The notes under the pieces are model-generated. The model searched no databases and was not told the origin of the DNA. It saw nothing but the letters and a program-made list of their open reading frames with translations. A program made the position numbers and the translations under genes. A DNA stretch of 64,000 nt from Syntrophorhabdaceae bacterium (GTDB taxonomy: Bacteria > Desulfobacterota > Syntrophorhabdia > Syntrophorhabdales > Syntrophorhabdaceae): positions 224,001 through 288,000 of the forward strand of contig CAXXUO010000003.1 in NCBI GenBank assembly GCA_963666485.2. Direction: 5' to 3'. This document shows positions 33,751 to 34,982 of the stretch, one piece after another. The number at the start of each line of letters is the position of its first letter. Position 1 is the stretch's first letter.

Positions 33751-33783
33751 AGCAACTGTGTTCGATGTCAACTGATTTCTTCT

Positions 33784-34719
33784 TCACGAGGTGACCTCGA
33801 TCCACGTTGTCTTGTTCTTCATCATGGTATTCAGAATGGTCAAAAGCTTCCTCATGCAGGCAGTAATCGCAACTTTCTTGGCCTTTCCCGCTTCGACGAG
33901 CCGTTTATAGAAGGCCCCGATGGCAGGATTGAACTTGATCGCGCTGATGGTCCCCATATACAGTATGGCCCTGACATGAGACCTGCCTCCCCATATGGTC
34001 CGTGTTCCCCGGTATCTGCCGCTGTCCCTGTTGAAGGGGGCGAGCCCGACAAGGGCCGCGATGGCCTTGCGGTTCAGTGTCCCCAGTTCGGGAAGGGCTG
34101 CGATGAGATTACAGGAGATAACGGGACCGACCCCGGGCATGCTCATGAGGATCGTCTCCTTCTCCTTCCACAGGGGGCTTTTCCTGATCGTCCGCGAGAT
34201 GTCCTTGTCGATCTTCTTCAAGGCCTCGGTGAGATAGTATATGTGGTTCCGGATATCCTCGCTTCCGGCAGCGGGCGCTTTCTCGAGGCGGTTCTTCTCC
34301 ATCGTCAGCATCTGGATGAGCTGCCTCCTGCGGGCAACGAGGGCACGGAGCACCTCGGCATCTTTCTCCGGAAGCGGCCGTATCTCCGGCTCGATGGCCT
34401 TTGCGAACTGCGCGAGGACACCTGCATCTATCGTGTCCGTCTTTGCGAGCCTGCCTGTCGCCTTCGCGAAGTCCCTCACCTGCCGGGGATTGACCGCTAC
34501 AACAGGAAGCTTGCCGTCCGCCAGGGTACGCACTGCTCCCATCTCGTATCCTCCCGACGCCTCGATGACGATGCGGGAAGGGTTGAGAGGAAGTACGAAG
34601 GCAAGGATCGCCTCGTGGCCCTCCTCGTCGTTTGTAAACCTCTTCTGCGTGCCGCCCGGTATGACCGCGAGGTCACAATGCTCTTTCGATATGTCGATCC
34701 CGATGAAGACGTCGTCCAT
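33784..34719 (-). CDS. IS110 recombinase/transposase
   Basis: GIDISK, EASGGY, KTDTIDA (DEDD RuvC-like); [10 protein letters not shown] (catalytic Ser); ACMRKLL. Confidence 0.97.
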
Positions 34720-34729
34720 GATATCACCC

Positions 34730-34918
34730 CTTTTTCCCGTGTCCCTTCCTTGTGCAATGCGGGATCTCCTGCGAGTCCCCTGCAACTGTCCGGGTTTATA
34801 AGGAGAAGGTGTGGCGGCCCGAGCTTGGATACGGGATATCATCCCCTGGTTTTTACGGCCTGCCACACCGGCAACCTTTTTCTCTTTTCTATCATGGATT
34901 GTTCGTGATATTCCACGG
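34730..34918 (-). ncRNA. Bridge RNA (ends approximate)
   Basis: Two stem-enclosed loops holding sequences that match the target (AAAACC / ATCCAAG) and the donor (ACAGTTGC / ACAAG). Confidence 0.85.
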
Positions 34919-34982
34919 GGAGTATCATACAAGGTTTTGGTTTTATTGTTGTTTCCGGCCCCTTTATTTTTATATAGCAGGC

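Follow-up and report, generated by a model that had tools for sequence, protein, structure and literature searches.

The IS110-family element and its copies

The window analyzed here is a stretch of 64,000 nt from the genome of a Syntrophorhabdaceae bacterium (contig CAXXUO010000003.1, positions 224,001 to 288,000), and it contains on the minus strand, at 34931–33751, an IS110-family insertion sequence of 1181 bp (with one CT counted). Read on that strand, the element consists of a non-coding left end of 212 nt between the core dinucleotide and the start codon, in which a putative bridge RNA is located, the gene for a 311-aa recombinase, and only 33 nt after the stop codon. The left boundary reads CCAAAAC-CT-TGTATGAT and lies around 50 bases past a 701-aa open reading frame (ORF) ending at 34983, while the right boundary reads ACAGTTG-CT-TGGATCCCGG. 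The segments of these boundaries are the left target arm (LT) CCAAAAC (34940–34934), the core CT of the left junction (34933–34932), the start of the left end TGTAT (34931–34927), the left donor arm ACAGTTG with which the element ends (33759–33753), the core CT of the right junction (33752–33751), and the right target arm (RT) TGGAT (33750–33746). All these positions agreed with those given in an initial annotation that had been made from the sequence alone.

The genome (10 contigs, 3.77 Mb) was found to contain four full copies of the element with 100% identity and one 413-nt 5′ fragment, and a profile search identified these four copies as the sole PF01548 matches, that is, the only IS110-type genes in the genome. 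The identity of the four copies suggests a recent spread, and no more than that. Comparison of the flanks of the five copies showed CCAAAAC, GCAAAAC, GGAAAAC, GAAAAAC, and GAAAAAC on the left, each followed by CT. On the right, the four copies retaining that end were all followed by TGGAT, a hairpin and then ATGACG, and the first 10 bases after the right CT (TGGATCCCGG) were identical in all of them. The initial annotation had made its reading depend on whether other copies shared ends and flanks, and they do so: the ends are the same, AAAAC-CT precedes the element in 5/5 copies (noted as [A/G]AAAAC-CT), and TGGAT follows it in 4/4. Every copy had CT at each of its junctions, as did 22 of 23 tabulated relatives (described below), the exception being locus L015, and the seven letters ACAGTTG end 17 of the 24 tabulated rows. 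No terminal inverted repeats were found, since among 17 inverted pairs no pair links both ends.

In elements of the IS1111 subgroup the RNA-coding end is located after the recombinase gene. The position of the putative RNA region upstream of the gene thus fits the IS110 subgroup, as judged from the sequence. The truncated copy (L005; G000:C4:148764-149178) retains around 200 nt of the gene in addition to the left end, including all of the RNA region, and past its cut end a different repeat stands in three to four copies.

The recombinase

The recombinase gene extends from the ATG at 34719 to the stop codon at 33784 on the minus strand, in agreement with the intact 311-aa protein claimed previously. 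Its product matched the Pfam families DEDD_Tnp_IS110 (PF01548; 2e-26, 93 bits, cut-off 29) and Transposase_20 (PF02371; 4.7e-19, 69 bits, cut-off 21.3). A phmmer search against solved structures returned only two proteins, the transposases of ISCro4 (E 4e-38) and of IS621 (E 1.8e-35), with residues 5–302 aligned. Residues D9, E53, D95, D98, S233, and G234 aligned with D11, E60, D102, D105, S241, and G242 of IS621, described in the structural paper on that element as its composite active site. By sequence, the protein is a member of the IS110 family, with a predicted DEDD RuvC-like N-terminal domain and a predicted C-terminal Tnp domain carrying the catalytic serine.

Upstream of its ATG, the frame of the recombinase continues across the RNA region (34720–34932) for 71 codons with no stop, and the open frames of the four copies range from 391 to 422 aa. 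A 382-aa ORF starting at TTG 34932 was considered and rejected as a spurious upstream extension: the Pfam match, at profile position 1, begins at residue 6 of the 311-aa form. For annotation, the start should be placed at ATG 34719, the upstream stretch being treated as RNA-coding, and the 382-aa ORF should not be called. The open upstream frame is a trap for gene callers.

Structure of the left end and its guides

Fold prediction for the left end showed two internal-loop modules holding four guide stretches. The target-binding module (34808–34869, minus strand, as for all features of the RNA) is composed of a 12-pair outer stem, an internal loop and a 5-pair inner hairpin, and had a predicted energy of -30.1 kcal/mol (z -2.77; 1/200 shuffles as good). 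The GGTGTGGC/GCCACACC stem that the initial annotation had drawn around the first two guide stretches proved to be part of this 12-pair helix, which encloses both target guides. The donor-binding module (34743–34794) is closed by a CCC/GGG outer stem, and its internal loop leads to an inner hairpin in which one A is bulged (-18.3 kcal/mol, z -2.08; 8/200 shuffles as good).

In the published pairing rules, the right target guide (RTG) and right donor guide (RDG) pair with the core and right arm on the top strand, and the left target guide (LTG) and left donor guide (LDG) read in the same sense as the left arms on that strand. Four stretches of the left end follow these rules. The LTG is UAAAAACC (34848–34855), assigned by its match to the left arm and contained in the stretch TAAAAACCA (34855–34847) noted earlier; its AAAACC matches LT and the first core base in 5/5 copies, and AAAAACC does so in 2/5. 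The RTG is AUCCAAG (34824–34830; ATCCAAG in the DNA, 34830–34824), the exact reverse complement of CT plus TGGAT, and an independent repeat search recovered the same complementarity between RTG and right flank (13 nt, 11 of them complementary). The LDG, ACAGUUGC (34782–34789; ACAGTTGC in the DNA, 34789–34782), matches the right-end arm ACAGTTG and the first core base in 8/8 positions. The RDG, ACAAG (34749–34753), is the reverse complement of CT plus TGT, with 5 contiguous bases, and AU at 34758–34757 could in addition pair with positions 13–14 over a 3-nt bulge, like the split RDG of IS621. The claim that all four guides can be read against the element's own donor and target was thus borne out, both by these matches and by orthologues in which other guides accompany other matching sites (see below).

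By analogy with positions 81–82 of IS621, CU at 34822–34823 would be the handshake bases of the target loop. In a reading made by eye, the C after the RTG could pair with the G at donor position 7 but would not do so with the C at target position 7, and the G after the RDG could pair with target position 7 (C) and not with its own DNA.

The guide matches were compared with chance by means of an anchored score, which adds the length of the unbroken LTG match that finishes at the first core base to that of the unbroken RTG match that finishes at the core AG, with 18–49 nt between the two. The real target and the real donor each scored 13 (6+7 and 8+5, respectively). A score of at least 13 was reached by 7/20000 random sites and by 13 of around 20,000 real CT sites of contig C1, and the best non-cognate target for the RNA of the element scored 10. 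These results indicated that the match between guides and target exceeds chance.

Other features of the left end were also examined. A long-range helix between bases 12–17 and 190–195, present in the minimum-energy fold, was rejected, as both the 83% orthologue and L015 carry changes there that are not compensatory. Nine bases in the 3′ arm of a 5′ stem-loop (34890–34898) are perfectly complementary to the start-codon stretch (34715–34723), and the same letters are present in L006 and L015; this complementarity could couple RNA folding to translation. On the opposite (plus) strand, at 34758–34878, the whole Rfam model sX15 (RF02234) matched with 30.1 bits (gathering score 55, E 0.015), the sole notable hit of the Rfam scan. 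The paper defining sX15 describes it and asX7 as complementary transcripts from a plasmid of Xanthomonas, and reports 10 homologues on the chromosome of a Stenotrophomonas. The sX15 family may be an antisense view of an IS110 left end.

The host target site

The right flank of the window copy contains a hairpin resembling the extragenic palindromic repeats (REP) of other bacteria, CCCGGTG-loop-CACCGGG (33721–33745, minus strand), identified by inverted-repeat search, which belongs to the host sequence and is followed by ATGACG. A search with one simple pattern (CCCGG-loop-CCGGG plus ATGACG) found around 150 such hairpins genome-wide. The 9 nt preceding them were ACCTTGGGT in 45 hairpins, ACCTTGGAT in 32, ACACTGGAT in 23, and TGCTTGGAT in the four occupied sites; the remaining hairpins carry rarer strings, and at least three types of 5′ edge exist. 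The insertion point is 5 bp before the hairpin, and all copies occupy one position and orientation of the repeat. The 12-mer AAAACCTTGGAT, which represents the site without the element, occurs at 27 places in the genome against 0.3 expected, and at 24 of these it is followed by the hairpin; AAAACCTTGGGT occurs 41 times. The target site is the 5′ edge of a REP-like hairpin repeat, so that the genome offers dozens of landing places. The site sequence proposed initially was right, but it is not a unique site, and its membership in a repeat family had gone unseen.

All occupied hairpins are of the CT-TGGAT type (4/36, vs. 0/45 for the CT-TGGGT type). According to our own arithmetic, such a bias has a probability of around 4% if both types are equal, which hints weakly at recognition of position 4 in the right arm.

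Since 24 of the 27 exact empty sites carry the hairpin, and all four copies with a right end adjoin it, guide and hairpin signals are inseparable in this genome. This leaves room for a form of dual recognition, in which genuine guides would act but the hairpin 5 bp to the right of the core would be a further requirement for site choice, like the stem-loop gate reported in a preprint on ISPpu10. In that system, however, the stem-loop is a 5′ extension of the target, as far as described there, whereas the hairpin here is on the 3′ side.

Several further features of the repeat region were noted. At 33642–33751 of the window the hairpin repeat is present as 2.8 tandem units of 40 nt, and past this array, at 33571–33626, there are eight exact tandem 7-mers (GGTTCAA on the plus strand). 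A PF01797 search of the genome, which is 99% complete, found no match to a REP-associated Y1 (RAYT-type) transposase. A second IS110 element dedicated to the hairpin subfamily ACACTGGAT (23 copies) was ruled out, as all four PF01548 matches correspond to the element described here.

Guides and stems in orthologous elements

A scan of one genome per species yielded 24 loci, the nearest in metagenome-assembled genomes titled Syntrophorhabdus. Of 96 searched genomes belonging to the same order, 11 contained the family, and orthologues at 81, 59, 57, 56, 55, and 40% identity were added. The resulting 24 rows comprise the described element and 13 plus 10 relatives, with 35–83% identity.

One comparison was with the 83% orthologue (L006–L012), which has identical donor ends and an identical donor loop, while its target guides differ (LTG UUUAAACC, RTG GUUCCAG). 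The right flanks of this orthologue read CT-GGAAC in 7/7 cases, so that the RTG has changed along with the target. On the left, TGAAAC-CT was found in 17 of 24 distinct flanks recovered at contig ends, of which the LTG matches only AAAC-C and one further base. In addition, one stem pair is changed from U-A to C-G. In another genome, this orthologue is inserted at TGAAAC-CT-GGAAC in short tandem repeats similar to the 7-mer array of the window.

The 83% orthologue also bears on dual recognition. Its donor module is the same and its scaffold almost identical, and its site TGAAAC-CT-GGAAC is followed by varied sequence with no common hairpin in 7/7 right flanks. We consequently regard a need for both signals as unlikely. 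That the hairpin is a second, structural determinant of site choice, lying across the core from where ISPpu10 is reported to have its stem-loop, appears to us somewhat less probable again; if true, the clade would show both modes, the 83% orthologue using hairpin-free short tandem repeats with the same scaffold.

When all rows were compared with their own flanks, the RTG matched the right flank in 7/7 positions in 18 of 24 rows and in 6/7 in two, the LDG matched in 8/8 positions in 17 of 24, and the cognate target scored above every non-cognate one in 16 of 24. The rows in which the cognate target was not the best were L015, L017, L019, L020, L024, L025, L062, and L066; in L019 and L025 the site of a sibling beats the cognate one by a single point. 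L015 (1283-2480) shows many single-base gaps relative to the described element. L015, L062, and L066 are single copies in other genomes whose flank fits one target guide only. They recall the half-match insertions reported for IS621, and could possibly be such insertions, or decayed sites.

Covariation of the stems was evaluated in a 14-sequence alignment. In this alignment 81.7% of cells were paired, in comparison to 68.5% in shuffles and 38–53% in slid controls, and 22 of 32 stem pairs had changed on both sides, which none of 500 shuffles reached; the tested structure was drawn from the described element, itself in the alignment, and this favors the structure somewhat. Two-sided changes were present in 9/12 pairs of helix 2 (target module), 4/5 of helix 3, and 6/7 of helix 5 (donor module), and helix 4, also of the donor module, was paired in 100% of cells. 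Across orthologues at 55–83% identity within one order, a natural reprogramming series is already visible: the donor arm is near-constant (exact in 4 of 7 elements), and both target guides have been rewritten for different host repeats.

Predicted junction promoter and proposed mechanism

Joining of the two ends would bring together a -35 hexamer TTGACA in the right end (33766–33771, minus strand) and a -10 hexamer TATGAT in the left end (34924–34929), giving TTGACA-17-TATGAT, a sigma-70 match of 11/12 that exists only in the circle form. In the integrated copy ACAACA (3/6) stands at the -35 place, and a promoter scan listed no site there. A score of at least 9/12 was obtained for the junction promoter in 6 of 12 elements examined. 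As judged from these sequences, a promoter would be rebuilt across the joined ends, as in the account of IS621.

Four sequencing runs were searched for a circle junction or an excision of the element, and no backward-going joint was listed. One raw-read run (X23) gave 0 reads, and the other three consist of contigs, which are unable to show a circle junction: X1 and X3 are contigs of a possible source sample, whereas the matches of X19, which are RNA contigs, were confined to pieces of repeats beyond the element. In X1 the word depth of the element unitig (33753–34925) was 12.8, against 3.18 for the flank (34977–35100), around fourfold, and in X3 it was 15.6 against 11; neither is a measure of copy number.

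Based on these results, we consider it about 90% probable that the window contains an intact element of the IS110 subgroup working like IS621. This reading draws on the anatomy of the left end, the guide matches, the common site of the copies, the empty sites, the covariation of guides and stems, the catalytic residues, and the promoter sequence of the junction. In the proposed pathway, the element would leave as a circle in which the right end ACAGTTG-CT is joined to the left end TGTAT, and the strong sigma-70 promoter thus made would drive synthesis of a bridge RNA of around 180 nt from the left end. The 311-aa DEDD/Ser recombinase would bind this RNA, whose donor loop would pair with the junction via LDG ACAGUUGC and RDG ACAAG, and whose target loop would pair with the host sequence AAAAC-CT-TGGAT via LTG (U)AAAAACC and RTG AUCCAAG. 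Strand exchange would then take place at the CT core. Transcription, circle formation, RNA-protein binding, and present activity are steps that we only infer.

Several observations weigh against this interpretation. Folded in its entirety, the 213-nt left end is unremarkable (z -1.34, 13/200 shuffles as good), and the 5′ stem-loop (UAUCA/UGAUA, 34890–34910, -1.5 kcal/mol) is weak, with a z of -0.82 that is not significant, and occurs only in the three closest sequences of the alignment. LTG pairing is short (6 contiguous bases in three copies and 7 in two), and the first guide base never matches. The LTG base opposite the second core position is A and not U, and would thus be unpaired, the match stopping at the first core base in the manner of a donor guide, whereas the LTG of IS621 is described as covering both core bases. 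A scan of Rfam 15 with E values up to 10 found no family match on the RNA strand. Among the relatives, the right flank of L015 matches its own RTG only in two core bases, although its left arm fits with a covarying G; the left flanks of L062 and L066 match the LTG in only 2 positions; a match in L017 and L024 depends on G-T wobble; and L020, with a score of 7, could not be parsed. The relatives are moreover kin from few independent lineages, so that the counts overstate independence. Finally, expression and movement are unsupported by the sequencing runs described above.

The unremarkable fold of the whole leader and the lack of a match to a curated RNA family would also fit a specificity determined by the protein, in which case the left end would only lead the mRNA of the recombinase and its guide matches would be due to chance or hitch-hiking. 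Such a role for the left end is very improbable: the guides change with the flanks among orthologues, as seen in the complete RTG matches of 18 of 24 rows, the stems covary, the observed score was rarely reached by random sites, and the closest solved homologues are RNA-guided according to their descriptions. It is scarcely credible that the conserved right flank is part of a longer element ending past the hairpin, with TGGAT not being target, in spite of TGGATCCCGG and the post-hairpin ATGACG being common to the copies, since in the copy of contig C5 the loop of the hairpin differs and its stem is compensated although the element is 100% identical, the same flank is joined to AAAAC-CT without the element at 27 places, and orthologues end at the same ACAGTTG-CT followed by unrelated sequence.

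Comparison with known systems

The interpretation of the element as IS621-like can be examined feature by feature against IS621 itself (Durrant et al., 2024; Hiraizumi et al., 2024), the RNA being compared by eye against the text of the Durrant et al. (2024) supplement, which gives the IS621 RNA, its design template and the donor ACAGTAT-CT-TGTAT, just as the initial annotation had quoted it. Both proteins have the same domain pair and active-site residues, and both elements carry the RNA region in the left end, with the target loop preceding the donor loop, and use CT as core. The two donors differ at 2 of 14 positions (ACAGTTG-CT-TGTAT here). According to that supplement, the RTG has the same register in both, with a GU linker, 7 nt and then two further (handshake) bases, and the LDG is in both 8 nt long, ends on the first core base, and stands after CCGG and before A. 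The RDG region begins in both with AU, followed by a bulge (UU in IS621, UGC here) and by core-proximal bases ending AAG-G, the donor modules have the strings AAACC-GG-ACAGU...C-A in common, and the first handshake base of each loop appears here, as in IS621, to fit the other DNA. A sigma-70 junction promoter is likewise present in both, here as a sequence, and the target of IS621 is also described as a REP.

There are also clear differences. The IS621 protein is distant (phmmer E 1.8e-35) and has 326 aa vs. 311 aa here. The natural RTG pairs 7 bases here vs. 4 reported for wild-type IS621, while the LTG stops here at the first core base, with 6–7 pairs, vs. 9 in IS621 including both core bases. 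In the present element, 5 bp separate the insertion point from the hairpin that follows it, whereas the left arm of IS621 appears to be within the 3′ part of the palindrome, in our own reading of the REP sequences quoted for it. The best solved homologue by sequence was the ISCro4 transposase (PDB 9t56; E 4e-38, residues 5–302), compared as protein only. ISPpu9 and ISPpu10 of Pseudomonas putida, compared by their description, are also multi-copy IS110 elements inserted in one conserved repeated intergenic sequence with a stem-loop, which is there a 5′ extension of the target and not, as here, a hairpin 3′ of the core.

A near relative of this RNA is among the sequences that Durrant et al. (2024; supplementary data 1) used as input for their covariation analysis, with nearly the same scaffold, the same donor ends, RTG AUCCAAG and the stem GGUGUGGC/GCCACACC; its LTG is GUACAAACC vs. 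GUAAAAACC here, and there are a few scaffold changes. The donor string of our element occurs 188 and 424 times in two supplementary files of that work. Its own LTG string was not found in the parts of the supplement searched, and the exact element may be elsewhere in it. The 90% cluster of the protein has four members, none of them named, and a literature search found no paper with both Syntrophorhabdus and IS110. The proposal that this is a new natural instance therefore stands for the exact element, but not for its RNA and donor, a near relative of which was already in the published covariation input; it is a new member of a known mechanism and not a new mechanism.

The element thus represents a well-documented natural bridge-RNA system from an anaerobic syntroph lineage that leaves the picture of the mechanism known from IS621 unchanged. 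Its features worth noting are a compact recombinase of 311 aa, a natural RTG of 7 nt, an LTG built like a donor guide, 27 exact empty sites in the same genome, and orthologues with rewritten guides. This set of orthologues could serve as a natural test bed for the change of target and for the role of the neighboring hairpin.

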